Source: a virus (Duplodnaviria; Heunggongvirae; Uroviricota; Caudoviricetes). From it: a DNA stretch of 52,473 nucleotides. Shown here piece by piece: positions 1 through 16,839 of the stretch. The position numbers and the translations under genes are program-made. Every line of letters starts with the position of its first letter. The first letter of the stretch is position 1. The DNA is taken from positions 1-52,473 of the IMG/VR virus record IMGVR_UViG_2541047750_000003; one strand, given 5' to 3'. Under the pieces are notes generated by a model that was given only the letters and a program-made list of their open reading frames with translations, searched no databases and was not told the DNA's origin.

Positions 1-231
1 TTATGTGTTATCTTTGGCTGACGTTAAACCAATCCGATCAAAGAACTGCATTACGTCCTGATAGCGGTACATAACGCCACGCCCGGTCCCAAGTACGTCA
101 ACCGGGTCGGGGAACGGAGTTCCGTTCCGTTCCCATTTTTTACGCCATAAGTAAAACGTTCCCCTGCTAATTCCCCCAAGCATCCGGCAGATGGCAGGGC
201 GACTAAGAAGGATTGTCCCGGTTTTATCCAT
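1..231 (-). CDS. AlpA/excisionase-like small DNA-binding protein (76 aa)
   Basis: Complete minus-strand ORF with its stop codon at window positions 1-3; basic segment RGTFYLWRKKWERNGTPFP resembles AlpA/Xis-family prophage regulators; last gene of the minus-strand operon. Confidence 0.45.
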   Translation of the reverse strand: MDKTGTILLSRPAICRMLGGISRGTFYLWRKKWERNGTPFPDPVDVLGTGRGVMYRYQDVMQFFDRIGLTSAKDNT

Positions 232-890
232 TATTTATCCCCCGTGTATTCAACGTGTCCGATACATCCGTCAATAATAGCTTGCGCCATGTTGCGATAA
301 TCGCACGAAAATTCGTTGTCGCGGTTAAAGTTAATCTCTTTCGCCGCATCTTCACCGATAACCTTAGTAGCCAGTGCGAAAGCAATTTCAGCAAGTGCCT
401 TTTCTTTCTGGTCAATGTGAATGCGATAAGAGTATTGTTTCCATGTAATTATCGTTTCCACATCTGATATTAATTTACTGTGAGCGATAGCCCAATTATC
501 ACCGAGATATAAAAACTTGACGACATCAAGAACCGTTCCGCTGGTCATACCTACACAATCAAGCCACACATTAACAGGAGGTTTATCACCTACGGCCCAT
601 TCCGTTTTTTCTGGTTGCGTTTCGCAATCATGCCGCTCATCTTCGATTAATTCATCAATGATCTCACTTTCTTTATTCATGCCGTCATCATCCTTATTAG
701 ATAAATTAGCGTATTTATCAAATTTCCAGCTTGCAGCCATAACCGAATAAGTGCCGCCATCCGCGCGAACACCCAATAAATAGTATGATCCAAAATTATA
801 TTCTGTGCGGCATGTTGTTACCTCAAACGATGGGTAACACTCAGGGTTAGTGCGATGGCTAATCACGCCAATTGCTTTAAGTTTATTCAT
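231..890 (-). CDS. hypothetical protein (219 aa)
   Basis: Long ORF, co-directional with neighbours, start overlaps the downstream gene stop; no motif recognised. Confidence 0.5.
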   Translation of the reverse strand: MNKLKAIGVISHRTNPECYPSFEVTTCRTEYNFGSYYLLGVRADGGTYSVMAASWKFDKYANLSNKDDDGMNKESEIIDELIEDERHDCETQPEKTEWAVGDKPPVNVWLDCVGMTSGTVLDVVKFLYLGDNWAIAHSKLISDVETIITWKQYSYRIHIDQKEKALAEIAFALATKVIGEDAAKEINFNRDNEFSCDYRNMAQAIIDGCIGHVEYTGDK

Positions 891-904
891 TTGCTTATCC
901 TCAA

Positions 905-1066
905 TTACGCCACAGTTACATTGTCAACTTTGATAAAATATTCAGGGTGATTTTCTATTTCGTGCTTAAAGTGCGCGTGACACAATCGCCAATCACGCAC
1001 CTGGTTGTGAAAGTAATAAACGTATTCGCCATCAATCTTATACAAAATGCCTGTAGGTTTAGCCAT
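905..1066 (-). CDS. small hypothetical protein (53 aa)
   Basis: ATG 14 nt downstream of the NinB stop fills the 190-nt gap; peptide MAKPTGILYKIDGEYVYYFHNQ...; weak RBS. Confidence 0.25.
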   Translation of the reverse strand: MAKPTGILYKIDGEYVYYFHNQVRDWRLCHAHFKHEIENHPEYFIKVDNVTVA

Positions 1067-1080
1067 GTAATAACGAGCCA

Positions 1081-1512
1081 TTATTGCCCCCAGCGTTTTA
1101 TGAATTCCTCGTTTAATTTCGTATCACCCGACCATTGAACATCATGTTCAGCACCGAACGAGTAAATTAATTCGATTAGTTCACTGAATTCTGATTTACT
1201 CATTCGACTTGTAGATGTTCCCAATACAACGAAGCCGGATTTATCCAGATTAGGCACGACGCCATATTTTTTAAGCCCGGCGGTGAATACCGCTTTCCAG
1301 TCTTCCGGCGACAGCTTCTTACCGTACCAATTAACCTGATCACTAATGTCGGTTAGCAACGCCCATAGAAGGCTATTTTGGCTTAGCGAGCGGGTTTTCT
1401 CCTGGATGGTAATTATCAGCGGGCTTTTGCTATCAGGCTGGATCTCTCTTATCTGCCTGATAGCGTTTTCTTTTACGGCGTCGTTTACTATTTCAAATCT
1501 AATTTGCCTCAT
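1081..1512 (-). CDS. ninB: NinB/Orf-family recombination protein
   Basis: 143 aa; IITIQEKTRSLSQNSLLWALL and VVPNLDKSGFVVLGTSTSRMSKSEFSELIELI closely match recalled lambda NinB (VVTIQERNRSLDQN...LW, VVPNLAGNGFVVIGQSTSRM). Confidence 0.85.
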   Translation of the reverse strand: MRQIRFEIVNDAVKENAIRQIREIQPDSKSPLIITIQEKTRSLSQNSLLWALLTDISDQVNWYGKKLSPEDWKAVFTAGLKKYGVVPNLDKSGFVVLGTSTSRMSKSEFSELIELIYSFGAEHDVQWSGDTKLNEEFIKRWGQ

Positions 1513-1706
1513 AATACACCGTTACTGTTTTTCCACTGCGCCCGCGCATACATGATCGCCTGCAAAGAAATTAGACGTGAGCTTGTCATGAAAGCGCTTT
1601 TTAAGTATCTCATATCAACCACAACAGGTTTATCAGGATCGTCACCGTGCATGTATTCCGCAATAGTGCTAAAGTCTTCAATGGTTAAATCTAACTCCTT
1701 ATTCAT
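1509..1706 (-). CDS. hypothetical protein (65 aa)
   Basis: ORF with start overlapping NinB (ATGA-type coupling); no motif recognised. Confidence 0.45.
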   Translation of the reverse strand: MNKELDLTIEDFSTIAEYMHGDDPDKPVVVDMRYLKSAFMTSSRLISLQAIMYARAQWKNSNGVL

Positions 1707-1715
1707 GATCGCCCC

Positions 1716-1922
1716 TCACACAATACGCATTGTGTTTCGTAATTCACCGCGCAGCACCCGCAGTGCATCACGCATTGGTACAAAAACCCGGTTAAATTTT
1801 ACGTGTTTATATTTCTGCATCAGTGGCGGTGTATACACCTTTGCGTCGTATACTTCCCACGGATAATAAACGCGCGTATCGTCAACAAACGTTTCAACTG
1901 AATAAAAGATTACCCGTATCAT
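1716..1922 (-). CDS. hypothetical protein (68 aa)
   Basis: ORF in operon context, start overlaps upstream gene stop. Confidence 0.45.
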   Translation of the reverse strand: MIRVIFYSVETFVDDTRVYYPWEVYDAKVYTPPLMQKYKHVKFNRVFVPMRDALRVLRGELRNTMRIV

Positions 1923-2512
1923 AATTCCAACCCCGTTTCACCGTTAAGTTTTTCGACCTCAAATACTGGTTTATCCGGCAGCAGGCCGTTATTTTTCCGG
2001 TATTCATTCAGGCGGCTGTCAAAATCAAACGCGAGATCATTAGCGTGACCGAAGCGCCCAGGTTTAAACAGTGAGTAAAAATTAAGGCCGTGCTTATTGG
2101 TGTCTATGCAAAGCGTTTCATCCAGTACCATTAAACGCAGCGTGCGCGACAGGTAATTCCACGGAATACCAGTTTCCGCGCTAATGTCACGCATACGCTT
2201 TTTAACGCTGTAGTCACTAAATAACGATGCCACACGATCGCGACGTTGTGCATACAAATATTTAATTCGATAGCCAAGCAACCTGCGGCGAGGTCCGAAA
2301 TATGTATATACACGCTCGACAATGCCAGTGTCGATTAAGTGTTTAATTGTCTCAGGCAAACATCCAGCTTCGTCATATTCCGCTGATAATCCTGTTTTCT
2401 GGCGTAACTGGTGCATTGTGTCGATGCCATCAAGTTCAAGGATATTGATAATTTTTGCTTCAAGTTCAATGCTCATTGTTTTTCGCCTCGTTTTAAGCGC
2501 GAAAACAGCCAC
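1919..2512 (-). CDS. hypothetical protein (197 aa)
   Basis: ORF immediately downstream of the helicase gene in the same operon; no motif recognised. Confidence 0.5.
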   Translation of the reverse strand: MAVFALKTRRKTMSIELEAKIINILELDGIDTMHQLRQKTGLSAEYDEAGCLPETIKHLIDTGIVERVYTYFGPRRRLLGYRIKYLYAQRRDRVASLFSDYSVKKRMRDISAETGIPWNYLSRTLRLMVLDETLCIDTNKHGLNFYSLFKPGRFGHANDLAFDFDSRLNEYRKNNGLLPDKPVFEVEKLNGETGLEL

Positions 2513-2555
2513 CAGAAAGCGGTCAACTTTCCGGTAAGCCGTTTGCTCAAGTTAA

Positions 2556-3977
2556 TTAAAAAGATGCGTTGCTCTGGCTGTTTCGTGGGGAGAATCGACT
2601 TGCCGCCGGACGTTGTTGCATTGACTGAATGCAAGCGGACGCCGCGCGGGCCTGGTCGCATGGGATGATGTTGCCGTTATCGTCAAACCGCTGGTAAACA
2701 GTCCCCGTTTTCCCGTGACGGTTTTTTGAAACGATGATCTCCATATATTCGCGGGCAACCGATTGTTCGTTGTAGTAGCCGTCGCGGTAGACCATGATGA
2801 TCCGGTCTGCGTCCTGTTCAAGATTACCGGAATCACGCAGATCAGAATTGTTCGGGCGCTTGTTCGGTCGTTCCTCAACGCGGCGAGATAATTGCGCCAG
2901 TGCCGCCACTGGCACGCGCAACTCTTTCGCCATCATTTTCAATGACCGCGACAATTGCCCTACGGCGAGATCATGACGTTCGGCCTTAGCCAGTTTCATT
3001 AACCCGATATAGTCAATCATCACCATCCCCAGGTTATGATGGTCCTGTTTCATCCGTTCGACGGTGGCGCGTATTTCCTCGACCGTTAACTGCGATGCGT
3101 CAACAATCCACACATCGAGATCGGCAAGGGCACTCATTCCCTGGGCGACGTGCGCCCAACCTTCGTCATCCAGTTTTACCGGATTACGTAGGCAATCCGT
3201 TGATAAGTTCCCAGCGCCAGCGATAGCACGTTCAGTCATCTGATCGAGCGACATTTCAAGCGTGAACAGCAAAACGCCGACCCGCTGACCTTCGCCTCCA
3301 GGGTATGGGCGTTCAGCCGCCGCGCGGGCAATTGCCAACGCCAACGCCGATTTACCAGACCCTGGGCGTCCGGCGATAAGCACCAGATCAGTAGCGTTAA
3401 TGCCGCCTAACATTTCGTCGAGTGGGTCAATCCCTGTTTTGATGTTGTCAGAGTTCACGCCACACTCCATGCGTTTACTTAACACTTCCGTGTATTCCTG
3501 GACCGCATCGCGCAACAGCACCGGGATAATTTGATCTTTTGTTACCTTTAATTTTGAATACCGGGAATCAAAATCTTTCATCGTCTCCCTGACGACTTCA
3601 AGCGTCCCTGTTTCCAGCTTGTAGCGAATGTCTTCCATTAGTTCCAGCATTTGCCGACGCTGGTGTTCTTCCTGTAGTAGTTGCGCATATCCTTTCAGGT
3701 TGGCAGCAGAAGGGCACGATCGTGCCGTTTGCATTAGCGGTACAAAGTTTTCATTGCCAATCTCATCGCCAACCAATAACGCGTCGATAAGATTTCTGTT
3801 TCTGGCTTGCGCCCGGATAACTTCAAACGCACGTTTATAAAGCGGGATCGTGAACACTTCAGGATCAAGTGTGGCGAGAACATCTTGCGCGTTAGGAGTA
3901 AGGCCACCTAACAGTAGCCCGCCGATAACTGACGCTTCACGTTCCTGCCGTAGTGAGTTTATTTGCTCAGTTACCAT
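2556..3977 (-). CDS. DnaB-like replicative DNA helicase
   Basis: 473 aa; Walker A GRPGSGKSALALAIA, DnaB-type N-terminal domain, RecA-like core; GGAGG RBS upstream of the ATG. Confidence 0.85.
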   Translation of the reverse strand: MVTEQINSLRQEREASVIGGLLLGGLTPNAQDVLATLDPEVFTIPLYKRAFEVIRAQARNRNLIDALLVGDEIGNENFVPLMQTARSCPSAANLKGYAQLLQEEHQRRQMLELMEDIRYKLETGTLEVVRETMKDFDSRYSKLKVTKDQIIPVLLRDAVQEYTEVLSKRMECGVNSDNIKTGIDPLDEMLGGINATDLVLIAGRPGSGKSALALAIARAAAERPYPGGEGQRVGVLLFTLEMSLDQMTERAIAGAGNLSTDCLRNPVKLDDEGWAHVAQGMSALADLDVWIVDASQLTVEEIRATVERMKQDHHNLGMVMIDYIGLMKLAKAERHDLAVGQLSRSLKMMAKELRVPVAALAQLSRRVEERPNKRPNNSDLRDSGNLEQDADRIIMVYRDGYYNEQSVAREYMEIIVSKNRHGKTGTVYQRFDDNGNIIPCDQARAASACIQSMQQRPAASRFSPRNSQSNASF

Positions 3978-3995
3978 TATGTTATTGCCTCCGGT

Positions 3996-5114
3996 TTACA
4001 AAATGGAATATTCAGAGTAATAAACAAAGCGCCCAATTTCCCCATGATCCGGGCTGTAAATAATCACCGCTGCCAGACGCCGCGACCGCCAGCCGCCATT
4101 AGTTGAATATGCGTCTTTGCCAGCTAATGTGCCGTGGTGCTCAACTATTCCAAGTGATGTTTCAACAACTGATTGATGGTGCAGATGTCCAGTGTGAGCG
4201 TAAACAGCCACAGACCTCCCGAAATCCTCCCGCCAGTCAGATACGCAAGCCGACAATAAATTTTCCGGCTTTTTGATAGTGTGCCCGTGGTGGTAAGCAA
4301 GGAATGTTTTGCCGTACTGTGTGTGGTGGACGATAGCAGGGGACACATCAACAGTTACGCGCGGTTCATCTTCGTAAAAAGCCGCCAGCGCCGCACGTAG
4401 CCAAATCATGCCAGACTGATCGTGATTGCCTGATAGTACCTGGATTTCAATATCCTTATGATTTAACAACATCTTTCCTACCGCCCGACGTACCGCTCGG
4501 ATCGCTACATAGACAAGTTTTGCATAGCGTGAATCGCAATCCAGTACGTGATTGCTTGATGGCGTAACTGGCAACAGCCCGTCAGTGTGAAGAACATCCC
4601 CACCGAGAAGCAAAACAGCTTTTTCAGACATCGGCGCAGCGCCCACCGCGTAGTCAAAGAATTCATTCAACACGCGTTCAGCGATCCCAGTGTCGTAGCT
4701 CTCGCCGCATTCAGCTTTATGAGCAAGCGCCCCGATATGCAGATCAAATACCGGATAAAGGGCCAGGCTTTTTTGAAAATCAATTTCAGGCACTGGCACG
4801 GCCTCCGCGCGTGGTATTTCTTCCGTGAATGCGTCGCGGGCAGCTTCCATTAGCCTTTCCATTTCATCACGGTCACGGGCAGTTTTAATCCAGCGCATGA
4901 CCGTATTACCAGCCTTATCGACAAGAACAGATTCACCAGTAACGCCAAAACCAGGCGCGCGACGCGTTGATATTAAACCGCGTTTCGCCAGTTTTGCGCC
5001 TAGCCGCTCGACGTTGCGTTTTGACATGCCATATTTTTCAGCGATCTGCTTGTACGTTAAACCGTTGTTATATTCAGCGATCAATTGCTCATCGCTGATT
5101 TTTCTTTGCGACAT
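3996..5114 (-). CDS. HTH domain fused to calcineurin-like metallophosphoesterase (372 aa)
   Basis: N-terminal HTH (LTYKQIAEKYGMSKRNVERL); ordered phosphoesterase motifs DLHIG, GGDVLH, GNHD, GHLHH; GAGGAA RBS; sits where a helicase loader or O/P-type protein would be. Confidence 0.6.
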   Translation of the reverse strand: MSQRKISDEQLIAEYNNGLTYKQIAEKYGMSKRNVERLGAKLAKRGLISTRRAPGFGVTGESVLVDKAGNTVMRWIKTARDRDEMERLMEAARDAFTEEIPRAEAVPVPEIDFQKSLALYPVFDLHIGALAHKAECGESYDTGIAERVLNEFFDYAVGAAPMSEKAVLLLGGDVLHTDGLLPVTPSSNHVLDCDSRYAKLVYVAIRAVRRAVGKMLLNHKDIEIQVLSGNHDQSGMIWLRAALAAFYEDEPRVTVDVSPAIVHHTQYGKTFLAYHHGHTIKKPENLLSACVSDWREDFGRSVAVYAHTGHLHHQSVVETSLGIVEHHGTLAGKDAYSTNGGWRSRRLAAVIIYSPDHGEIGRFVYYSEYSIL

Positions 5115-5147
5115 AATGTTATTTCCTCATGTTTACATTTTGTATAT

Positions 5148-6071
5148 TTATTGACAGCAAACAATCTCTTTATATGTTTCTTCTACCATGTCGAATACTT
5201 CCGGCCTGTAATAAAAAAATTCAGTGCTACCATCAAACTTAACAGGGAAGTTTATTTTATAGTCACTGAAAGCATCGTGCATTTTGCTTTCTATTTCCTG
5301 CATAATCTCAGTAGGCCCATTCCATGTTTTAACTACCTGTAAATCAGTCAGCCTTACACCTGCCTTACGAGCACTTTTAAATACTCTGTTCCTCCTTTCG
5401 TTCTCTTTTACGCTTACACCAATTTTCATTTGTGTAGGCACTTCAAGATCATCAACCATGATGTAAAGTTTTCCGTTGTAGTGTGATAAAAACCCGTATT
5501 TAGCGCATTTCGGGCAACCGCGCCCGCTCTTAATGTCTCTAGGTTTAGCCGACCACTCATGATCACAAACCTTGCAGCGGCATAATACTTTTGTACTGTT
5601 ATTAACTATTTCAACCAGCACTTCAATATCAGGATTAACCTTAGCAATAGCCGATATTTGTTCTTCATGCGATATTTTTTTGCCTTGCGCTCGTTTTAGC
5701 ACCGCACATTTCTGGCAACCGCTCCCGATCTTAAGGCTTTTAGGTGTAGAATACCACTCATGATCACAAACCTTGCAGCGGCATAATACTTTTATTTTGT
5801 CGCCGGTAATTTCCCCAAGCACTTCAATATCAGGATTAACCTTAGCAATAGCCGATATTTGTTCTTCATGCGATAACTTCATATTCCCAGCGCATTTCTG
5901 GCAACCACGTCCATATTTAATATTGCTAGGTGTAGCCGACCATTCATGGTTACAAACTTTGCAGCGACATAATACTTTTGTACTGTTATTAACAATTTCC
6001 CCTAACACTTCAACATCAGGATTAACTTTCGCGATAGCTGCAACTTGTTCTTCATGTGTTAACTTGCGCAT
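5148..6071 (-). CDS. protein with three tandem zinc-ribbon-like repeats and a C-terminal T5orf172/GIY-YIG-like domain (307 aa)
   Basis: Three ~65-aa repeats each with CRCKVC...GCQKCA (C-x-C-x2-C ... C-x2-C); C-terminal KLYIMVDD...KIG...EFFYY segment resembles T5orf172; AAGGAG RBS. Confidence 0.55.
   Translation of the reverse strand: MRKLTHEEQVAAIAKVNPDVEVLGEIVNNSTKVLCRCKVCNHEWSATPSNIKYGRGCQKCAGNMKLSHEEQISAIAKVNPDIEVLGEITGDKIKVLCRCKVCDHEWYSTPKSLKIGSGCQKCAVLKRAQGKKISHEEQISAIAKVNPDIEVLVEIVNNSTKVLCRCKVCDHEWSAKPRDIKSGRGCPKCAKYGFLSHYNGKLYIMVDDLEVPTQMKIGVSVKENERRNRVFKSARKAGVRLTDLQVVKTWNGPTEIMQEIESKMHDAFSDYKINFPVKFDGSTEFFYYRPEVFDMVEETYKEIVCCQ
5480..6070. repeat. three ~195-bp tandem direct repeats inside the CDS
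   Basis: Long near-identical blocks, e.g. cacttcaatatcaggattaaccttagcaatagccgatatttgttcttcatgcgata at ~5619 and ~5820, with a diverged third copy ~5940-6060. Confidence 0.7.
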
Positions 6072-6210
6072 CGCTCCAACTCCTTAAGAACATCATGCGC
6101 GCTACAACGCAAAAACCCACCGCGACACCCGTTTGCACAGGTTGCAGTGTCTTATTGCGTCAGAGACGCCATCAGGTGGCTAATTTTCGATTTACAGAAT
6201 GGTAGGTAGG

Positions 6211-6312
6211 TTATGGATTGATTAGCAGGTACAGACCGCCGAACAAGGCGACGTTAACAGCGATTGCCGCAGCGATGGCAAAAGCCAGGGCGAAAACGTG
6301 TTTACCGTCCAT
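6211..6312 (-). CDS. small hydrophobic protein (33 aa)
   Basis: MDGKHVFALAFAIAAAIAVNVALFGGLYLLINP with GAGAGG RBS, in the otherwise ORF-free 375-nt gap. Confidence 0.25.
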   Translation of the reverse strand: MDGKHVFALAFAIAAAIAVNVALFGGLYLLINP

Positions 6313-6445
6313 TTTAAAATCCTCTCTGTAACGCTCTATAACGAGCTAATCGCAAAAAGGTAAGCAAGTGTAGCACCACATGCGATTTAGCTCGCTGGTG
6401 AGGTTGTTTTGTGGGTAATTTTGGATTTTTGCGGATCGTGATTGG

Positions 6446-7498
6446 TCAAAGAACGCCAGCGCGCGTATCACGTAGCGTTTTTGGTTTAAGCAGGAAATCA
6501 AGTGTCGCGGTGAAGCCATCGCCGAAGTAAAAATCTGAAGCCGTGTTTTTGAACGTTTCGAAGTAGGCGACAAAGCCGTTAATGCTTTTGTCTTTCAGGT
6601 AGTCAGTGAACGCATAGATCTTGCGTTCAAGATCCCGATCCAGTTCGGCAGGTGGTAACAGGCCGTCAAACGTGCTGTTAAATGCTTCCACCACGTCGGC
6701 AGCGTTTACAGTGGCTGACAGTTTGCGCCATTGTTCAGCATCAGTCAGATACCCATCAAATTTAGTTACCCGGCAAATGTTGATAGGCTTAGGTACTCCA
6801 CCACGGCTACGCCATTGGGTTAAAGCCCACTCAATTACTAACGTGATCTCATTCTCCGTATACGCTTTACGTGTTTTTGTTTCTGTCAGTAGTTCTACGA
6901 ATGGCTTAGCATCACGACATTTGCATCCTGCCTTGTCGTTGTAGAAGGCAAGGCAACGCAATGCCGCTTCGTTTACGCCATCCTGATTGACCATTTTTTG
7001 TTCATTTTCGACAATACACGAAGTGTATATATCTTTTTCTCTTTCTTTTTCTACTTCTAATTCTAATTCATGACCCTTTCCTGACCCGGTCATGACCCTA
7101 TCATGACCTTTTTGTGTTGGATTGATTAACTTTTCTAATTTTAATTGCTCCTTCGCTGTGTTTATGGCGGCCCTGTAAGCGCTTTTAGAAGTCATTGATT
7201 GGTCCAGCCTTTTCAATAACTTTAAACAAGTTATGTGGCCTTGAGAACATTCAAACAAACCAATTTCGATGAAGTATTTCATCATTTCTTCTATACGTTT
7301 TTCAGTAGATCCGACGTTTCGAGCAATGATTCTCGCGTCATGTCGTAGGTCAAAAGTCAGATTGTGCTGATCTACGTCATAAGTTATTAGTTCGAGGCAA
7401 TACCAATAAAGCCCGTACCCTTCCAGGCCATAATCTAACAAAACGTTTTGAAGTTTTTCATCGCGGTTCGCATCGCTGTCATGCTTAAACCACTTCAT
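6446..7498 (-). CDS. replication initiator / replisome-organizer-like protein (350 aa)
   Basis: N-terminus MKWFKHDSDANRDEKL and C-terminal FYFGDGF...LLKPKTL region resemble conserved phage replication-protein termini as recalled; GGAGGG RBS; first large gene of the replication operon. Confidence 0.5.
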   Translation of the reverse strand: MKWFKHDSDANRDEKLQNVLLDYGLEGYGLYWYCLELITYDVDQHNLTFDLRHDARIIARNVGSTEKRIEEMMKYFIEIGLFECSQGHITCLKLLKRLDQSMTSKSAYRAAINTAKEQLKLEKLINPTQKGHDRVMTGSGKGHELELEVEKEREKDIYTSCIVENEQKMVNQDGVNEAALRCLAFYNDKAGCKCRDAKPFVELLTETKTRKAYTENEITLVIEWALTQWRSRGGVPKPINICRVTKFDGYLTDAEQWRKLSATVNAADVVEAFNSTFDGLLPPAELDRDLERKIYAFTDYLKDKSINGFVAYFETFKNTASDFYFGDGFTATLDFLLKPKTLRDTRAGVL

Positions 7499-7501
7499 AG
7501 A

Positions 7502-7759
7502 TCATCCCTCCGGCAACATCACTACATAGACATCACTGAATGCATCAAGACGACAAACAAATCCTTTATCCATTAACGCGGCGAAGGCATCATGTACCGT
7601 ATGAACAGGAAGTTCACACATTGCGGCTACTTCTTTGCGTGATGCATCATGTACCCGTCCTTTGTTATCTGCCTTTTCAGCCAGAGCCATTAAGACAAGT
7701 TTTTGAATCGGGCTATTAAGTTTTACGTTCCATGCTTTACTAATCATGTTTATACTCAT
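7502..7759 (-). CDS. Cro-position HTH DNA-binding protein (85 aa)
   Basis: Start refined to the ATG after the AGGAG RBS (track ORF 7502..7837); divergent from cI; KLVLMALAEKADNKG...HDASRKEVAAMCELPVHTV looks like a winged HTH. Confidence 0.5.
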   Translation of the reverse strand: MSINMISKAWNVKLNSPIQKLVLMALAEKADNKGRVHDASRKEVAAMCELPVHTVHDAFAALMDKGFVCRLDAFSDVYVVMLPEG

Positions 7760-8064
7760 CGCATTTTCTCCTATGGTTAGAGTGAACGCGCGGGCGGGCA
7801 TCCCATTAGCATTAGATAGCAGTGACTGACCGCTCAACAGATCCCGCCGTTGCGTGATATTTGTTTTTCGCTTCGCAGCGACACCGGATTTTTAAAGAGC
7901 ATAAGGTAAGTGCCTTTTTGTGCCTTCCGTTATCTTTTTCCTTGCGTCTTTGCAAGTATGGCCTTACCTTGTCTGCAAGTTTACAAAATGGAATTTTAAA
8001 ATCAAGGCTTAAAATACACGTTTTGTGACTTGCATCAAACTTTTTGAGGTTATAGGGTAGCGAC
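7760..8064. promoter_or_regulatory. divergent immunity control region between cI and the minus-strand early operon
   Basis: 305-nt gap between divergent genes; contains TTTACAAAATGGA (7980-7992) and inverted AAGGTAAG/CTTACCTT arms; promoters and operators not resolved. Confidence 0.45.
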
Positions 8065-8712
8065 ATGAAAACAAAATGGTATGACTTAGCAAAGCAGCTC
8101 ATGCGGGCGCAGGGCATGAGCCAGGATTCGCTCGCGGATCGTATGGGGATAACTAAAGGCGGCCTGTCACACTGGCTGAACGGTCGCCGAGAGCCAAATC
8201 TTGAAGATATTGCGCGGATTATGCGCGAGCTTGGTCGTCGGCAGTTTACTGTTACACATGATGGCATGGTCATTGATGATTCTGTTTCTAATACACTTCA
8301 GGCCGTGCCGCCGCGTGATTTAGGTAGTTACCCGGTTATTGACTGGAAGGACACAGTAAACAATATGGATGACGCAAGGCGTTCAGCATTACGACACGTT
8401 ACGACTAGCGTTATTTGTTCAGATGACAGTTACTGGCTGGTTGCCAAAGGTGAATCAATGAACGCGCCGCAGGGGTTGAGCATCCCGGCGGGGACGATGA
8501 TACTTGTGGACCCGCACGCGCCAGCTATTGACGGCAAACTGGTTATAGCCCAGCTTGAGGAAGGGCAGATACCGACGTTTAAACAGTTGATTATTGATGG
8601 AGGTCAAAGGCTTTTACGTTCGCTCAATCCGCTGTATCCGCCAATCCCTATGAATCCAGAATCAAAAATTATAGGCGTGGTGGTTGATGCGAAGATCGTA
8701 AACCTGCCATAA
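8065..8712 (+). CDS. cI: cI-type repressor (HTH plus LexA-like S24 peptidase domain)
   Basis: 215 aa; N-terminal HTH (QDSLADRMGITKGGLSHWLNGRR); C-terminal autocleavage domain with Ser in LVAKGESMNAP and Lys in PTFKQL. Confidence 0.85.
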   Translation: MKTKWYDLAKQLMRAQGMSQDSLADRMGITKGGLSHWLNGRREPNLEDIARIMRELGRRQFTVTHDGMVIDDSVSNTLQAVPPRDLGSYPVIDWKDTVNNMDDARRSALRHVTTSVICSDDSYWLVAKGESMNAPQGLSIPAGTMILVDPHAPAIDGKLVIAQLEEGQIPTFKQLIIDGGQRLLRSLNPLYPPIPMNPESKIIGVVVDAKIVNLP

Positions 8713-8717
8713 ACATT

Positions 8718-8742
8718 AGCCGCCGAATGGCGGCTTTTCTTT
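8718..8742 (+). terminator. intrinsic terminator after cI
   Basis: Hairpin agccgcc-gaat-ggcggct followed by TTTTCTTT. Confidence 0.45.
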
Positions 8743-8835
8743 GCCTGGAAAACACCAAAACGTAAACAGAAAACGTTATTTATTATTTAAATATCAATGG
8801 CATATAAAATATTTTAAAAAAGTATACAAAATGGA

Positions 8836-8864
8836 TTGACTCGATGTTTTACGGGGCGTATATT
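8836..8864 (+). promoter_or_regulatory. sigma70-like promoter (pL-equivalent)
   Basis: TTGACT, 17-nt spacer, TATATT; TACAAAATGGA motif abuts the -35. Confidence 0.5.
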
Positions 8865-9118
8865 GCGAGTCAAAGGAAGGGCGCAGGTAACAAAAGCAAC
8901 TTCCTGGCACTTTAAAAATCAGGCTTAACACCTTGTCAACCGTGGAGTAACTCCCCGATGGGGGACCGAAAGCGGCACTGATAACAAGGCGCATGGGGTG
9001 TTTAAAGCGTTACATCCCCCACGAAACCGCACGCAAGGCGACGAGTCAGCTTGCTTGGAGTGAGCAAGGTCACGCCGGGAACGGCGATGATTGCGGGATT
9101 AGTTGAAAGATGTTAAGC

Positions 9119-9156
9119 CGCTCATTAACAATCTGGTCAGCCGCTGGAAGTGCGGC
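9119..9156 (+). promoter_or_regulatory. candidate nutL (boxA-like plus boxB-like hairpin)
   Basis: CGCTCATTA (8/9 to boxA CGCTCTTTA) then 12 nt then hairpin GCCGC-TGGAAGT-GCGGC, 56 nt upstream of the N-like gene. Confidence 0.35.
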
Positions 9157-9212
9157 AATTAACGAAGATGATTTTTTATTAAGTATCATCAAGGATATAC
9201 GGAGATCAGATT

Positions 9213-9503
9213 ATGAGCGTTACAATTATATATGGTAAATGTGATAGCAAAATGAATGCCAGGGAACGCAGAAGGATAAAAAGAGAAAACGAAAGAAAAT
9301 CATCACCTGCAATCAATAAAACAGACAATGTGGATAAAGCTATTCGATTTGCAAACGAGGAAAGATGCAAACCAAATAGCATTAAAGAACGTCGCAAAGG
9401 ATCAGTAAAATGGTATACGGAAAATGAAAGCGGCAGCTACTACCACGCAACGCAACCACGCCATTTAGGGGAAAAACCCCTGGATAAAGTCCGCTACCAT
9501 TAA
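9213..9503 (+). CDS. N: N-type transcription antiterminator (arginine-rich motif)
   Basis: 96 aa; MSVTIIYGKCDSKMNARERRRIKRENERK resembles the recalled P22 N (gene 24) N-terminus and ARM; first gene after promoter and leader. Confidence 0.65.
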   Translation: MSVTIIYGKCDSKMNARERRRIKRENERKSSPAINKTDNVDKAIRFANEERCKPNSIKERRKGSVKWYTENESGSYYHATQPRHLGEKPLDKVRYH

Positions 9504-9649
9504 TACAAAATGTAAACATCCGGAGATGACATTATGGTTATTCAGGCGCTTCAATTCAAACTGGCAGTAGCGGAAATGCTTCACGATGCCGAAATGTGGA
9601 GCGCCGCGAATAAAGCCTTATACATAGTGTTAACAGCACGGGAGATTAA

Positions 9650-10294
9650 ATGGTGAAAACAGAGTTACATAAAAAGCTATGGACGATTCAGCAAACGCTG
9701 AACGCGCCGAAAAATCAGCGTAATAATTTTGGTGGATATAATTACAGGTCGGCGGAGGATATTTTAGAGGCGGTTAAACCACTGCTTCAAAATATCACGC
9801 TGACTGTTAGTGATGAAATTGTCCTGATCGGCAATCGCTATTATGTGAAAGCAACGGCGACGCTAAGCGACGGTGAAGACGTAATAGCGGTAACTGCTTA
9901 TGCCAGGGAGGAAGAAAACAAGAAGGGTATGGACGCCAGCCAGCTAACAGGAGCAACATCAAGTTACGCGCGTAAATATGCTTTGAACGGTTTATTCTGT
10001 ATAGATGATGCTCGCGATCCTGATACTGATGCTTACGCGAAGCAGACAGGCCAGCAGCCGCGACAACAGAAAAACCCACCAAAACAACAACCGCAGCAGA
10101 AGAAAGCGCCGCCAAATCCTGATGAAGTATTAGCACGTTTCTGTGATGCAGCAGCGAAAGCGCAGGACGCTAACAAGCTGCGTGAAATATTTGGCAAATG
10201 CTGGAAATTACTACCGGAAGGATCGGAACATCGAATCAAGGCAAAAGATGTTTATGACATCCGGGTCGCAGAGCTTAACGGGGAGATGGGTTAA
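9650..10294 (+). CDS. erf: ERF-family single-strand annealing protein
   Basis: 214 aa; LNAPKNQRNNFGGYNYRSAEDILEAVKPLL...IVLIGNRYYVKATATLSDGE...AREEENKKGMDASQLTGATSSYARKYALNGLF matches recalled P22 Erf. Confidence 0.9.
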   Translation: MVKTELHKKLWTIQQTLNAPKNQRNNFGGYNYRSAEDILEAVKPLLQNITLTVSDEIVLIGNRYYVKATATLSDGEDVIAVTAYAREEENKKGMDASQLTGATSSYARKYALNGLFCIDDARDPDTDAYAKQTGQQPRQQKNPPKQQPQQKKAPPNPDEVLARFCDAAAKAQDANKLREIFGKCWKLLPEGSEHRIKAKDVYDIRVAELNGEMG

Positions 10295-10713
10295 TGAGTT
10301 TGAATTCAATTACGCTGGGCGGGAATATCGGAAACGACATGGAAGTTCGCTACACGCAAAACGGTAAAGCGATTGGTAGTTTTCCGTTAGCTGTAACGAA
10401 TGGCTACGGTGATAACAAGCGGACAATGTGGATCACTTGCCTGGTATTTGGTGAGCGTGCGGAAAAATTAGCGCCACATATCCGCAAGGGTGGAAAAATA
10501 GTGGTAAGCGGTCGCCTGGATGTTCGGCAATATGACCGGAACGACGGCACGAAGGGGACTGCGGTAGAAGTGGCGGTTAATGAATTTGAATTCATGAATG
10601 TTAACCAACAAGGCCAGCAGCAAGGACAGCAGCAGAAAGCGCCGCCGCAGCAGCAGAATAATAACGGGAATAATCCGCCTCCGATGGACTTCGACGACGA
10701 TATTCCTTTTTAG
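10294..10713 (+). CDS. ssb: single-stranded DNA-binding protein
   Basis: 139 aa; OB-fold N-terminus, Gln/Pro-rich linker, acidic tail MDFDDDIPF. Confidence 0.9.
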   Translation: MSLNSITLGGNIGNDMEVRYTQNGKAIGSFPLAVTNGYGDNKRTMWITCLVFGERAEKLAPHIRKGGKIVVSGRLDVRQYDRNDGTKGTAVEVAVNEFEFMNVNQQGQQQGQQQKAPPQQQNNNGNNPPPMDFDDDIPF

Positions 10714-10729
10714 AATCAATGTGTTAGCG

Positions 10730-11008
10730 ATGAGTGATTATCTAAAACCGCCACCGCAACCACGAACAAAAGAGCAAGTATTAAAAGAAGCCCGCGATCA
10801 AATCGATCGCGGGCTTTTTTTATGCGGCACGGCAGCGGATCGAATGGCGAAAAGATTTAGTGACCTGTACGCGAAGCAAATCTGGTTTGACAACTGGCGA
10901 GCGAGTTCTTACCCGCTACAGAAAACTGATGATATGCAGTGGCCTGAATATGTTGATCCACGAATGCGCAAATATCGCGGGCGTATGGGCAAGGTTATTA
11001 ACGATTAA
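10730..11008 (+). CDS. hypothetical early protein (92 aa)
   Basis: Start refined to in-frame ATG (MSDYLKPP...) after the ssb stop; track ORF 10598..11008. Confidence 0.4.
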   Translation: MSDYLKPPPQPRTKEQVLKEARDQIDRGLFLCGTAADRMAKRFSDLYAKQIWFDNWRASSYPLQKTDDMQWPEYVDPRMRKYRGRMGKVIND

Positions 11009-11020
11009 TGAGGTATTACC

Positions 11021-11272
11021 ATGACAGCTACAACATTAAGCGAAAATAACGGGCGCGGTTTTCAGGGGACTGCGGAAACCTCAGACGATGGTGATGTATT
11101 TGTCGAATTCGGTGGCGGTAACTATGAATTCGAAACGTCGGCGGGCTGGCACGATAAATGGCCTTTCCCGACGCGCAAGGAATTAAGCGAACGTAAATCA
11201 TTTGGCGAAGATGCCGAACGGCTGGCTAATAACAAATGGCTTGATAAGTTCATTGCGGAGGGTGGCAAATGA
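11021..11272 (+). CDS. hypothetical early protein (83 aa)
   Basis: ORF in tightly packed co-directional array. Confidence 0.4.
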   Translation: MTATTLSENNGRGFQGTAETSDDGDVFVEFGGGNYEFETSAGWHDKWPFPTRKELSERKSFGEDAERLANNKWLDKFIAEGGK

Positions 11273-11376
11273 AAAAGATTGCAATGTTATCCGCCGCCGT
11301 TGCTGTGGCGGCTGTTTACCTTAGTGCGTCACTCTATATCACTGTGGCGATTGTTAAGCTGATTACTGACATGTGA
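11269..11376 (+). CDS. small membrane protein (35 aa)
   Basis: MKKIAMLSAAVAVAAVYLSASLYITVAIVKLITDM; ATGA overlap with upstream stop; below the track size cutoff. Confidence 0.4.
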   Translation: MKKIAMLSAAVAVAAVYLSASLYITVAIVKLITDM

Positions 11377-11383
11377 GGTTTAT

Positions 11384-11500
11384 ATGCGAGTCGACAAAAA
11401 TACTGTCAAGGCTGTTTTCTGTGTGGTCGCTTTCGTCTTCATGGTGGTAATAGCTGGCGCGACTGCGGCAATTATTAGCTATATCGGCGGGGTGATGTGA
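11384..11500 (+). CDS. small membrane protein (38 aa)
   Basis: MRVDKNTVKAVFCVVAFVFMVVIAGATAAIISYIGGVM; stop overlaps next start (ATGA). Confidence 0.4.
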   Translation: MRVDKNTVKAVFCVVAFVFMVVIAGATAAIISYIGGVM

Positions 11501-11772
11501 TGCCATTCATGAATATCAAAACGGGTGATCTGGTCGTGCTCCCGGAATACCGTAAAGACCCTGGTCTGGTTGTGCTGAATAAGACATATAACGATCTTGA
11601 GCGTCCGATCCTGGTTAAATATCTGGACGGAACAATTATAGAGCCGCGCTTCTTTGACAAGATCGAACTGAAGGCCCGTAATGTTCGCGTTAAGCCGTTC
11701 CGGGCTTATGTTGAAGACCACTGGCGGAAATTGTTCGCCGGACTGAATGGGATGTTCGGCGTATGGCTATAA
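11497..11772 (+). CDS. hypothetical early protein (91 aa)
   Basis: ORF with ATGA coupling. Confidence 0.4.
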   Translation: MMPFMNIKTGDLVVLPEYRKDPGLVVLNKTYNDLERPILVKYLDGTIIEPRFFDKIELKARNVRVKPFRAYVEDHWRKLFAGLNGMFGVWL

Positions 11773-11954
11773 AATTGGTAAAAGTTAAAGATTTAAAAGG
11801 CGGCGAAAAGATCCGTACGTGGTATGGGTATAAATTTATCATAGCTGCCTTTTCTTTTGGGCCTGGTGGTCAGGTAACATTATTTGACGAGGAAGATGAT
11901 GAGGTGGGTCAATGGCATCTTGAACAATATGTTGAGGTGTTAAATGAAAATTAA
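11763..11954 (+). CDS. hypothetical early protein (63 aa)
   Basis: ORF overlapping neighbours in operon. Confidence 0.35.
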   Translation: MAIKLVKVKDLKGGEKIRTWYGYKFIIAAFSFGPGGQVTLFDEEDDEVGQWHLEQYVEVLNEN

Positions 11955-12276
11955 ATTCCATAAAGCATATGATAGCGAAACAAACAAGCTATCACTATTT
12001 ATCGAATTCGAACGCCGGATCGTGGTTGTGCCCTGGGCGCGGCGCTTCAATGACGCTGGCGGACGTAGACAATTCGCGGTCGATATGCTGTTACGCGGCT
12101 GCGGCCTTATGCGTCCGCTATCTGATTTAAAACGAATGATGCCGGGATCGTTCGGTCAGATTGATGAAATAGAAATAAGCCCGGAAGAACTGAAACGGGA
12201 GCGTGATTTATTCCTTTCAAGCGAAGGAAACCCGTTTAATTCAGAAACTGAAATGAAATGGCATCACCCACTATAA
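11944..12276 (+). CDS. hypothetical early protein (110 aa)
   Basis: ORF in operon. Confidence 0.4.
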   Translation: MKIKFHKAYDSETNKLSLFIEFERRIVVVPWARRFNDAGGRRQFAVDMLLRGCGLMRPLSDLKRMMPGSFGQIDEIEISPEELKRERDLFLSSEGNPFNSETEMKWHHPL

Positions 12277-12289
12277 AAGGATAAATATC

Positions 12290-12910
12290 ATGAACGACAT
12301 CAAAACAGCTTACTCTCTCGGTAATGAAGGTATGTTGATCACTCGCTATACAGATGATGCAAACTTTCACGAAGTGGAAATTAAAGATTATCACGAAGTA
12401 TTGAAAGATATGGAAGCTGGCGCGTATGACGCTGATTTGAATCTGGCGCTACAGGTTGTTGATATTGTGATGGGTGCGTCAATCCGCGATTACGTGTCTT
12501 TAAGTATGGAAGAAAAAACATCGGTAGCGCGTTATGTATTCTCTCTTACTTTTGTGAAGCGCATGGAGGAAGAATTCGGACGCGTACCAGTGCCGGAAGA
12601 GGTTGATCCGCTCGCGTTCGGAAGTGCTGTCATTTTCCCGTTGAACAAGGAACAGCTTGGTAGTGTTTCACTGCATTCTATGCGCGGCCTGATGAAAAAT
12701 ATCTTTGAGGTTAAGATGTTGCAGAAATGCATTGAGGAAGGCCACAAAGAGGAAGAAGTAAAAGCGCTCATGCCATTGTTTTACGGTGAAATGGTTGGCA
12801 ATGATATGCGTGCAAATGATTTCGGCGTACAGGCGGCTATCGCTGTGCTTAATGACGCACGGAAAAACGCACAGCCGACGCCTGAACAGGGAAAACGTGT
12901 ACTGCATTAA
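12290..12910 (+). CDS. hypothetical early protein (206 aa)
   Basis: Long ORF, no motif recognised. Confidence 0.5.
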   Translation: MNDIKTAYSLGNEGMLITRYTDDANFHEVEIKDYHEVLKDMEAGAYDADLNLALQVVDIVMGASIRDYVSLSMEEKTSVARYVFSLTFVKRMEEEFGRVPVPEEVDPLAFGSAVIFPLNKEQLGSVSLHSMRGLMKNIFEVKMLQKCIEEGHKEEEVKALMPLFYGEMVGNDMRANDFGVQAAIAVLNDARKNAQPTPEQGKRVLH

Positions 12911-13009
12911 CCGAGTAATTCCGATCACATAAATATACATTTTGTATTGTGATTGTATATCCGTTTTGTAAGCCGAAATCAAAAGGTTTACGGTGCGGAG
13001 GAAGCAAAA

Positions 13010-13228
13010 ATGGAACGCGAATTGATGCTTTATTGCGTAGAAGGTGGCGTAGGTCACGATGCCTACGTCGCCGGGAAAGACTATCCAGCCGATGAAGTGC
13101 TTTCTAATATGCACTTCAGAGAAAATGAAAGCCAGGTGTCTGTGTGGAAACGGTGTATTGATGGTATTGAGGTTGTAAGTATCGAACGGTATTTAGGCAC
13201 GTTTGATTACGGTGTTATTGAGGCTTAA
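13010..13228 (+). CDS. hypothetical early protein (72 aa)
   Basis: Start refined to ATG after GGAGGAAG RBS (track ORF 12953..13228). Confidence 0.4.
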   Translation: MERELMLYCVEGGVGHDAYVAGKDYPADEVLSNMHFRENESQVSVWKRCIDGIEVVSIERYLGTFDYGVIEA

Positions 13229-13326
13229 TTATGGACGATACATTGTTTTATATGTGCTGTTTCTGGGGTTTTATTGCCTTATACCTGTTTATCAGGTGGT
13301 TTATTGAATACCATATGAGGTAATGT

Positions 13327-13521
13327 ATGGAACAAGAAACTGATTATCGAATACCTGATAGCCTAAAATTAGTTGGCATTGGTTTCGGGTGTAGATTTGT
13401 ATCTGACGCAAAAGGAGCGATTTATTTAATACGTCTTATTGATGGCGTTCAACATATAAGGAGATTAGGAATTTACATCAAAGCATTCAGAAGAGGTTAT
13501 TTAAAAACTCATGAAATTTAA
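13327..13521 (+). CDS. hypothetical early protein (64 aa)
   Basis: ORF in operon. Confidence 0.35.
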   Translation: MEQETDYRIPDSLKLVGIGFGCRFVSDAKGAIYLIRLIDGVQHIRRLGIYIKAFRRGYLKTHEI

Positions 13522-13714
13522 ACATTACATGGAATGGAAAATTCCAGAAGCAGCAACAAAGGCAGCGCCAGGAAATTTTTCTGGCGTTTATTTTTATATG
13601 GATGGCAAATGGTATTTCGGCAGCAGGCCGGATCACTACTATCAAGAAATATGCAAGCCTCACGTATGGGATATTAAAGAGCGCGTGAAAGGCGGGGTAA
13701 TTGAGGACGTTTAA
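13511..13714 (+). CDS. hypothetical early protein (67 aa)
   Basis: ORF in operon. Confidence 0.35.
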   Translation: MKFKHYMEWKIPEAATKAAPGNFSGVYFYMDGKWYFGSRPDHYYQEICKPHVWDIKERVKGGVIEDV

Positions 13715-13715
13715 A

Positions 13716-13952
13716 ATGCTTAAGAGCTTTTTTAACTGGTTGGGGGTGTGGCTTTTGGCTACGCTTTTTGTTTTCCTGGCGGCCCTGACTGTTATCGGTG
13801 TTATTATGCTGGGTGCTATGTTTATTACGTGGTCGCTTCCTGAATTTAACGACATTGGGAATATTCTTTTTGCAGCCCGCGCTTTATTGGCTGTTAGCGC
13901 ATTCATTGGTTTTTGCTGGACTGCCGCGCCGGATTGGACTGACACATGGTGA
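13716..13952 (+). CDS. two-helix membrane protein (78 aa)
   Basis: Start refined to MLKSFFNW...; two long hydrophobic stretches. Confidence 0.4.
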   Translation: MLKSFFNWLGVWLLATLFVFLAALTVIGVIMLGAMFITWSLPEFNDIGNILFAARALLAVSAFIGFCWTAAPDWTDTW

Positions 13953-13956
13953 TCCT

Positions 13957-14190
13957 ATGGCCTTATTCAATATGTCAGAGCCGCAATTTAACGCCGTAAA
14001 GACTGCCGCCCGCGCCGCGCTTTCGGCCTGCAAAGCGGAGGTAGAGAAGAACGGCTACAGCGATAAAGCCACGCGGCTGATATTAGATAAGCATTATCGC
14101 AAGGTCGCCCCGCTAATCAGTATTGAGCGTTTTGTGTGGTTGGTGGGGTATCTGAATAACCGCTGGGGAACAGATCAGGATTATTTCTAA
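13957..14190 (+). CDS. hypothetical early protein (77 aa)
   Basis: Start refined to MALFNMSEPQ (track ORF 13798..14190). Confidence 0.35.
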   Translation: MALFNMSEPQFNAVKTAARAALSACKAEVEKNGYSDKATRLILDKHYRKVAPLISIERFVWLVGYLNNRWGTDQDYF

Positions 14191-14199
14191 GGGGGCGTA

Positions 14200-14739
14200 A
14201 TGAAAAATGATTACGGCGGCAGCCATACGCCGAAAGAAATAAAGGACTTATGGCAAACGCCAAAACCCGTTTTTAGAGGAATGGATCGGGAATTCGAGTT
14301 CGTCGCGGATGTGGCGGCAAACAAGGAAAACGCATTAATCCCGAGATATATAACCGAAGAAATGGACACGCTCCATTATCCGTGGGGAGCGGTGGCGATG
14401 CCTGGTGAGTATGTCTGGATGAATCCGCCATATTCTAATCCGGGACCATTCGTTGATAAGGCGGCGCTTGAACATCAACGAAATCACATTGGCTGTGTAA
14501 TGCTATTGCCCGCTGACATTTCTGTTAGCTGGTTTATGAACGGCGTGGAGACGGCAAACGAATGCCGATTAATCACGCGCGGGCGGCTGGCGTTTATCAA
14601 TGCTGCAACAGGGAAACCAGTAAGCGGGAACAATAAGGGGAGCTTGTTCTTGATCTGGCATCCACGATGCAGACATGAATGTATTTTCACGCAGATAACA
14701 CGTAAAGAGCTATACGCGAGAGGCGCAAATAATGACTAA
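14200..14739 (+). CDS. phage Dam-like N6-adenine DNA methyltransferase
   Basis: 179 aa; catalytic motif WMNPPYS (DPPY/NPPY class); size and layout typical of phage Dam MTases. Confidence 0.6.
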   Translation: MKNDYGGSHTPKEIKDLWQTPKPVFRGMDREFEFVADVAANKENALIPRYITEEMDTLHYPWGAVAMPGEYVWMNPPYSNPGPFVDKAALEHQRNHIGCVMLLPADISVSWFMNGVETANECRLITRGRLAFINAATGKPVSGNNKGSLFLIWHPRCRHECIFTQITRKELYARGANND

Positions 14740-16489: not shown

Positions 16490-16511
16490 AGTTTACAAAA
16501 TGGCGTCATTG

Positions 16512-16527
16512 TGTGATGAATGTCACA
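16512..16527. promoter_or_regulatory. CRP-consensus-like palindrome TGTGA-N6-TCACA
   Basis: tgtgatgaatgtcaca matches both CRP half-sites; lies between inverted TACAAAATGG motifs upstream of the NinG operon. Confidence 0.35.
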
Positions 16528-16825: not shown

Positions 16826-16839
16826 TCGGGGTGGTTTTT

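Follow-up and report, generated by a model that had tools for sequence, protein, structure and literature searches.

Gene order in the window

The stretch of DNA analysed here, hereafter the window, comprises all 52,473 nucleotides of the IMG/VR virus record IMGVR_UViG_2541047750_000003 and is considered for the way in which its modules are arranged around a cI-type immunity region. It is very probably a prophage of the mEpimmI group of temperate Escherichia coli siphoviruses (type phage mEp021), truncated just inside the 3′ end of the integrase gene (int), and its module order would then be the normal layout of that group.

An earlier note, made from the letters of this DNA without database searches, had placed cI, an N-like gene, erf, and ssb on the plus strand, continuous with the nin, lysis, and structural genes, and the replication genes and NinB on the minus strand, leaving the other side of the immunity region. 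A map of the open reading frames (ORFs) and profile searches confirmed both placements. The rightward, plus-strand arm begins with the cI-like immunity repressor Rep (8065–8712; HTH_3 and Peptidase_S24 domains), which is followed by the N-like antiterminator, a homologue of the mEp021 protein Gp17 (9213–9503; phrog_271, E = 1e-13), Erf (9650–10294; PF04404), SSB (10294–10713; PF00436), and Abc2 (10730–11008; phrog_656). Around 12 small ORFs lie beyond Abc2 and before a block at 14200–16489 that consists of Dam (14200–14739), a DUF6378 protein, a membrane protein, and a second DNA methyltransferase (15725–16489), with PF05869 and phrog_757 as the matches cited for the block. A NinF-like gene (16649–16825), NinG (16840–17445; PF05766), an HNH and RusA ORF (17442–18338; PF13392 and PF05866), and the Q antiterminator (18526–19248; PF03589) come next. 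Further small ORFs separate Q from the lysis cassette of holin, endolysin, and Rz-like spanin (24085–25235; phrog_7, phrog_13, and the annotation of a related prophage in E. coli FAH), in which endolysin and Rz span 24205–25235. The terminase genes (27285–29289) open the virion gene cluster, which continues on the plus strand through portal, capsid, tail tube, tape measure, the L, K, I, and J genes, and a side tail fibre to 52196 and encloses a few accessory genes on the opposite strand.

The leftward, minus-strand arm occupies positions 1–7759. Its first gene encodes an 85-residue helix-turn-helix (HTH) protein at the position of mEp021 gp14 (7502–7759; phrog_4617, E = 4e-22, from residue 27 of a longer ORF), and the replication initiator, with a Lin1244_N domain and an O-like C-terminal domain, lies next to it (6446–7498; PF14297, phrog_345, and phrog_428). 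Beyond these are a Zn-ribbon endonuclease gene (5148–6071), an HTH-exonuclease (3996–5114; phrog_704 ‘DNA repair exonuclease’, E = 7e-138), the DnaB-type replicative helicase (2556–3977; PF03796, E = 2e-77, and PF00772), a MarR/Lrp-like protein (1919–2512), the NinB/Orf recombination mediator (1081–1512; PF05772, E = 4e-46), and finally a 76-residue HTH protein (1–231). GC skew is negative over positions 1–8000 and positive over 8001–24000, and the change of sign coincides exactly with the switch of coding strand in the divergent region, as is expected from real strand-biased coding.

The integrase had been predicted to lie beyond position 1, and this proved to be correct. The last 19 codons and the stop codon of a tyrosine integrase ORF are present at 2–61 on the plus strand, with a translation (YVLSLADVKPI...) that matches the C-terminus of the FAH prophage integrase. 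Only these 19 codons lie in the window; the junction of int with dgcM is seen in the FAH relative, where the order is host dgcM, int (plus strand), and the HTH protein (minus strand), and where the other end of the prophage abuts ynaN/zntB. In FAH and in the phages mEp554 and mEp021, int is adjacent to and convergent with the gene for the 76-residue HTH protein, and the annotations of mEp554 and mEp021 place it at the far left on the plus strand.

The gene of the 76-residue protein is the last of the leftward operon and overlaps the 3′ end of int. It had been labelled AlpA/Xis-like, a label that did not survive the searches: the protein matches only the generic Pfam family HTH_23 (E = 2.5e-6) and phrog_4745 (‘DNA binding protein’), and it gave no match to PF05930 (Phage_AlpA) at E ≤ 0.01, no NCBIfam match, and no meaningful match to PDB sequences. 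Its assignment to the AlpA family was rejected on these grounds, although its position beside int makes a role as an excision factor possible.

The layout as a property of the mEpimmI phages

The mEpimmI group was described by Negrete-Mendez and colleagues (Front Microbiol 2025; PMC11893012) from 48 genomes with high synteny and a conserved architecture. Its cI-type repressor, a protein with an HTH and an S24 domain, is highly conserved among the members, and that of mEp021, Rep021, has been shown by experiment to confer immunity. The antiterminator Gp17 is N-like, has conserved arginines 17, 19, 20, and 24, and acts at three nut sites; of these, nutL and nutR1 lie upstream of the repressor gene and of gp17, respectively, and nutR2 lies beyond the methylase genes. 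The phages also carry a Q-like protein; four types of integrase occur in the group, and integration takes place at ydaM (dgcM), abgT, or mppA. Immunity-I phages neither recombine nor hybridise with lambda (PMC11893012, citing Kameyama 1999). The paper's text does not contain the words ‘inversion’, ‘inverted’, or ‘rearrange’, and it maps no phage promoters or operators.

The repressor, the N-like protein, the nut sites, and the synteny of the group recur in the window. Its cI protein, with HTH and S24 domains, is 95% identical to the Rep protein of mEp021 and 93% identical to that of mEp554. The N-like protein carries an arginine-rich motif in its translation (N15 A R17 E R19 R20 R21 I K R24), which includes all four conserved arginines, and is 92%–93% identical to its counterparts in the mEp group (93% to gp17 of mEp021); a sequence search of the PDB with this protein gave no match. 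Three nut sites, each composed of a boxA and a hairpin, lie at the published positions. Synteny with mEp021 (accession MH706966) and nucleotide similarity to it are genome-wide: by tblastn, all 31 matched window genes are collinear and strand-matched with mEp021, as are 30 of 30 with mEp554, and nucleotide identity to mEp010, mEp013, mEp044, mEp515, mEp554, mEp021, and MagusPhagus is 85%–92% across 69%–84% of the window. The GenBank annotations of mEp554, mEp021, and the FAH prophage show the same gene layout. Since the window has these features of the group in PMC11893012, its module arrangement was already documented: what might be taken for an anomaly of one sequence is the published layout that is standard for a known phage group.

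Among complete genomes, the FAH prophage is the closest relative; it is 99.7% identical in the first 4 kb, 97.4% identical when 12 kb are considered, and 77%–95% identical elsewhere. The window is a distinct member of the group, because identity to FAH is only 77%–95% beyond the first 12 kb; no end-to-end match was found among 5426 complete E. coli genomes. The layout itself is present in 35 of these 5426 (approximately 0.6%), always as one chromosomal copy, and published work reports mEpimmI-type phages from human faeces as commonly as lambdoid ones.

A wider view was obtained from IMG/VR loci centred on Erf or on NinG, each with 10-kb flanks. When centred on Erf, the mEp layout was found in eight loci, in which Erf is at least 85% identical to that of the window; P22-like loci were canonical, and the rest were unrelated phages without the markers. 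When centred on NinG, 12 loci (NinG 86%–99% identical) had cI, N, and Erf on the plus strand upstream of NinG, 61 were canonical, with NinG at most 54% identical and preceded on its own strand by the replication genes and NinB, seven were uninformative, and none was intermediate. Both sets of mEp-layout loci follow the pattern of NinB, DnaB, and initiator on the minus strand and cI, N, Erf, NinG, and Q on the plus strand. Judged from these loci, the layout appears to be a clade-defining trait and not a sporadic rearrangement. Of two NinG scans of species-representative genomes, the first confirmed nothing and the second gave 11 loci at 51%–55% identity; these are mostly short contigs from unrelated taxa and look like lambda-type sequence carried into assemblies.

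The earlier note had named an assembly chimera or mis-oriented strands as the finding that would undo the arrangement. Such an artefact, in which phage fragments had been misjoined near the immunity region or the contig mis-oriented, is excluded by the conserved junctions in relatives and has next to no chance of being the explanation. Seven independently sequenced phage isolates, the 35 complete E. coli chromosomes, and around 20 IMG/VR contigs share identical junctions, and these records do not derive from one misassembled template; in addition, the divergent intergenic region at 7760–8064 is nearly invariant across 18 genomes, and the switch in GC skew coincides with the switch of strand. 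However irregular it may seem by the standards of lambda, the layout is a bona fide and widespread phage architecture, which should not be flagged as misassembly.

Comparison with P22 and lambda

The reference layout that the earlier note had given for lambda and P22, with cI and N leftward and replication in the rightward operon with the late genes, is correct when checked on the GenBank records. Both phages have one strand for int, xis, the recombination genes, N, and the repressor gene, and the other for cro, the replication genes, ninB, ninG, Q, and the lysis and structural genes.

Homologues were placed on the P22 genome by tblastn. Five of them, at 36%–56% identity, are in exactly reversed order and on the opposite strand. 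NinB (P22 34.75 kb; 53%), DnaB (gene 12 at 33.3 kb; 56%), and the initiator (gene 18 at 33.0 kb; 36% over the C-terminus) are on the minus strand in the window and the plus strand in P22; cI (c2 at 31.0–31.6 kb; 40%) and Erf (erf at 27.3–27.9 kb; 53%) are on the plus strand in the window and the minus strand in P22. The three other homologues, at 33%–51% identity, are collinear and on the plus strand of both: NinG (36.0 kb; 51%), Q (gene 23 at 37.2 kb; 33%), and Rz (39.1 kb; 36%). The same picture emerges against lambda for cI (34%), NinB (52%), NinG (53%), Q (34%), and Rz (31%). Formally, then, the window is P22 with the block from erf to ninB flipped, which amounts to one inversion. A single inversion is the most economical account, because the five homologues inside the block keep their relative order and mutual orientation, as do the three outside it. 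With the block of erf, cI, and ninB flipped as a unit, Q and the late genes come to lie on the N/recombination arm, and int and the attachment site (att) on the replication arm.

The suggestion of a ‘mosaic or inverted arrangement’ therefore stands in the formal sense of an inversion relative to P22, but the arrangement is not peculiar to this sequence, being conserved throughout the mEpimmI group. An order that is formally one inversion from P22 could also have arisen recently and privately, in an ordinary and possibly defective lambdoid prophage of this particular host. This is very unlikely, for the arrangement is common to plaque-forming phages, namely mEp021 and its relatives (PMC11893012), and it is confined to a clade in which NinG is at least 86% identical, compared with at most 54% in canonical loci, with no intermediates. 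The breakpoints also speak against a private event: no inverted repeats were found at the NinB/HTH junction and no large ones at the breakpoints, the only inverted pair being the PL–nutL region and the nutR2 module described below.

The immunity region itself, which had been singled out as unusual, is not. Its topology is lambda-like: cI points the same way as the N/recombination operon and away from the replication operon. It is at the distal junctions that the window departs from lambda: NinB is followed by the HTH gene and int, and the methylase genes by NinF, NinG, and Q. The window thus lacks the canonical lambdoid order, with NinG and Q placed downstream of, and co-directional with, the replication genes and NinB, and with xis and int at the end of the N/recombination arm; N- and Q-type antitermination and a cI-type repressor are nonetheless represented (phrog_271, PF03589, and HTH_3 with S24).

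With P22, the window shares a repressor gene co-directional with the N–erf operon and divergent from replication, antitermination of the N and Q types, and a nut site for each early operon. It differs from P22 in having a third nut site and no recognised homologue of cro, c1, or c3; in the int of its group, which is convergent with the replication operon, whereas the P22 int lies at the end of the erf operon; and in its virion genes, which are siphovirus genes unrelated to those of P22. Likeness to lambda extends to the L, K, I, and J tail-tip genes (by annotation) and to N-like antitermination that depends on Nus factors (PMC11893012). Unlike in lambda, where Q and the late genes are downstream of O and P, in the window they are downstream of the N/recombination genes; Erf and SSB supply the annealing functions in place of Exo, Bet, and Gam, and the helicase is DnaB, whereas lambda has the loader P.

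Early promoters, nut sites, and terminators

The divergent region between the two arms contains nutL (7868–7900, minus strand), which precedes the replication genes and consists of the boxA GCTCTTTAAAAA, an exact 12-mer, followed by a 5-bp boxB hairpin. It is invariant in 13 related genomes, and its position agrees with that of nutL in PMC11893012. The candidate promoter for this arm, PL (TTGATT-16-TAAACT; 7978–8005, minus strand), is a weak match, although the CCTTGA at its −35 and its −10 are conserved in 18 genomes.

On the other side, an intrinsic terminator with a 7-bp GC-rich stem and a T-run lies directly after cI (8718–8743, plus strand; −13.8 kcal/mol, z = −2.7); its counterparts are annotated as T2/TERM_1 in mEp554 and mEp021. 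Downstream of this terminator and upstream of nutR1 is the candidate PR of the N operon (TTGACT-17-TATATT; 8836–8864, plus strand), which is the best sigma-70 match in the region, at 10 of 12 positions, and is conserved beside a 15-mer motif (see below) in all relatives compared. In the leader of the N-like gene, nutR1 (9120–9156, plus strand) combines a boxA-like GCTCATTAACAA with a 5-bp hairpin at the position of the published nutR1.

The third site, nutR2 (16588–16620, plus strand), has the boxA GCTCTTTAAAAATCCGG, identical to that of nutL, and a boxB hairpin; its identity with nutL covers a boxA region of 17 nt. In 13–18 related genomes, the three nut sites are kept in both position and sequence. 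Within the nutR2 stem there is one double-sided change, from G·U to C–G (L014, L102, and L108), that preserves the closing pair.

Between cI and the lysis genes, the plus strand holds 35 terminator-like sites, compared with 18.1 ± 4.3 in shuffled sequences, and strong hairpins of this kind lie at 11293, 13564, 13742, 21043, and 24041. The last of these is an intrinsic terminator just upstream of the holin gene (24041–24067), at the position of t5 in mEp021. Such an enrichment fits a dependence on N and then on Q.

The leader between the candidate PR and nutR1 (8905–9110) is approximately 210 nt longer than that of mEp554 and has no Rfam match. It includes a second boxA-like sequence, GCACTTTAAAAATCAGG, at 8907–8923, which is present in some relatives only, and a 37-codon ORF (8994–9107) that is the homologue of gp16. 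Rfam and tRNA scans of the whole window gave no matches.

A candidate third early promoter

The sequence that precedes nutR2 contains more than a boxA and a hairpin. At 16502–16537 (plus strand) there is a 16-bp hairpin (−23.3 kcal/mol, z = −4.9), which none of 200 shuffled sequences could equal in folding energy. Across 18 genomes its stem is conserved and its 4-nt loop hypervariable, and it is the homologue of the predicted mEp021 terminator TERM_4/t4. A palindrome of the form TGTGAT-N4-GTCACA (16512–16527) was considered as a CRP site at −61.5 of the promoter-like site described next and rejected, as it is the top of this hairpin with its hypervariable loop.

The hairpin is followed by a promoter-like site (TTGTTA-16-TATACT; 16545–16572, plus strand) that matches 9 of 12 positions in the promoter scan and is paralogous to the candidate PL; its TTGT and its −10 are conserved islands in a variable stretch. 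The resemblance extends beyond the promoter, with 16489–16620 as a whole aligning to the reverse complement of the PL–nutL region. Both modules have a CCTTG(A/T) at the −35, a 16-nt spacer, CCATTTTGTAWACTT with the −10, and then ATGCTCTTTAAAAATCCGG and a short hairpin.

Both also contain the 15-mer AAGTWTACAAAATGG, a non-palindromic motif that occurs exactly four times in the window, at 7977–7991, 8820–8834, and 16489–16503 on the plus strand and at 16559–16573 on the minus strand. It is confined to the three early regulatory regions and conserved in 13 related genomes; with up to three mismatches allowed, there are 19 matches, compared with 4.9 ± 2.2 in shuffled sequences. The motif overlaps the −10 of the candidate PL and that of the promoter-like site before nutR2, and it abuts the −35 of the candidate PR. 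Either the immunity repressor or another regulator may use it as an operator.

Taken together, these elements have the look of a terminator–promoter–nut unit, and 16489–16620 might be more than an additional site of N loading on the long rightward transcript: it might be a complete third early transcription start, derived by duplication of PL–nutL, which would give NinF, NinG, RusA, and Q an N-modifiable promoter of their own, silenced in lysogens via the 15-mer. The proposal is a tentative one, with the balance of probability somewhat against it. If true, it would explain why there are three nut sites where lambda has two, with one for each early promoter, and would show how the flipped architecture restored a lambda-like unit of promoter, nut site, nin genes, and Q. 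The possible promoter–nut module would be a small and testable addition to the published work on the group.

A model for the working and origin of the layout

With these elements in place, the layout could operate as follows. The cI-like repressor gene would sit between two early promoters, as in lambda, and in the lysogen the repressor would be expressed from its own promoter by a transcript that stops at the terminator after cI. Upon derepression, leftward transcripts modified at nutL would express the HTH protein, initiator, exonuclease, DnaB, and NinB and end at the small HTH gene beside int. Rightward transcription would start downstream of the cI terminator and, once modified at nutR1, would lead to expression of the N-like protein, Erf, SSB, Abc2, the small genes, and the methylases; these transcripts would pass several terminators to reach NinF, NinG, RusA, and Q, or transcription would restart there. 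Transcription of the lysis and virion genes would then be driven by Q, past the terminator at 21043, that at 24041, or both. The cascade from N to Q to the late genes would thus run on one strand over approximately 44 kb, with replication on a separate N-dependent arm.

In this scheme, the part of the repressor in immunity and the action of Gp17 at three nut sites come from the mEp021 literature, and the gene identities and strands, the collinearity within the group, the reversed order relative to P22, and the conserved nut-like elements were observed directly. The positions and use of the promoters, the read-through, the succession of transcription events, and an origin in one inversion we infer. 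Such a layout would mean that a lambda-type cascade of cI switch, N, and Q can still operate when Q and the late genes are attached to the recombination arm and not to the replication arm, a change that would uncouple the expression of Q from transcription through the replication genes.

Several observations count against so simple a picture of an inverted lambda-type phage. The promoters are consensus matches only, and the candidate PL matches the consensus at just 8 of 12 positions. PHROGs and Pfam scans of the ORFs in 1–7759, 11021–14190, and 15183–16825 recognised no homologue of cro, cII, or cIII, and the switch may therefore differ in its working from that of lambda. A pure inversion predicts an int co-directional with the small HTH gene, but int is convergent with this gene and overlaps it, although the integrase module is exchangeable within the group (PMC11893012). 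The exonuclease and the Zn-ribbon endonuclease of the replication arm have no counterpart in P22 or lambda and the head genes are also unrelated, so the layout could have been assembled from modules instead of flipped.

On this last account, still for a member of the same group, stepwise modular (illegitimate) recombination would have joined a replication and int module and an N–recombination–nin–Q–late module, each separately, to the cI cassette. The orientation of int, wrong for a simple inversion, and the non-lambdoid genes of the replication arm agree with it, as do the variation of integrase type within the group (PMC11893012) and the exchange of the N-terminal half of the initiator, together with the small HTH gene, among group members (34% identity, as against 86%–90% in the C-terminal part; see below). 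Within the flipped block, however, the five P22 homologues are still arranged and oriented relative to one another exactly as in P22, as are three more outside it, a pattern for which one inversion is the most economical account. Stepwise assembly is a real possibility, though it falls short of being probable.

Variable genes of the two arms

The beginning of the replication arm varies within the group. The 85-residue HTH protein is 34% identical to its mEp021 and mEp554 counterparts, and the N-terminal approximately 150 residues of the initiator are likewise around 34% identical to those of the two phages or unmatched, whereas the C-terminal 190–200 residues are 86%–90% identical. The small HTH gene and the N-terminal half of the initiator gene thus represent a mosaic swap, among group members, of a presumed origin-recognition module. 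Because the 85-residue protein covaries with the N-terminal half of the initiator and resembles initiator N-terminal domains, not Cro, this first leftward gene is more likely to be part of the replication module than a Cro.

The Zn-ribbon gene is a variable insert in the replication operon. Its profile matches comprise three DUF4379/CapR-type repeats and a T5orf172-like endonuclease C-terminus, and the repeats are visible at the DNA level as copies approximately 77% identical (5503–5879 compared with 5704–6065). No tblastn match to the gene was found in mEp554. A 375-bp noncoding gap (6072–6445) separates it from the initiator gene. The gene may be a mobile endonuclease insert, or the adjoining gap may hold the origin. 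Klebsiella phage Sin4 and its relatives were tried as comparators for the layout and rejected, as they are T1-like virulent phages that have the exonuclease gene alone in common.

On the rightward arm, the ORF at 17442–18338 encodes 298 residues in which an HNH domain (PF13392, residues 50–94) is fused in frame ahead of RusA (residues 173–278). At this position mEp554 and FAH have a plain RusA of approximately 135–142 residues; RusA is likewise unfused in mEp021, although the replication arm of that phage includes a 48%-identical HNH gene, and in E. coli N921 an HNH gene is annotated separately at the RusA position. The fusion is probably a homing-endonuclease insertion.

In the group at large, superinfection-exclusion lipoproteins are placed inside the structural gene cluster (PMC11893012). 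The tail cluster of the window contains accessory genes on the minus strand at 37566–38063, 41203–41535, and 42527–43176; in FAH, the corresponding genes have annotations as TagO-like protein, KilAC antirepressor fragment, and hypothetical proteins.

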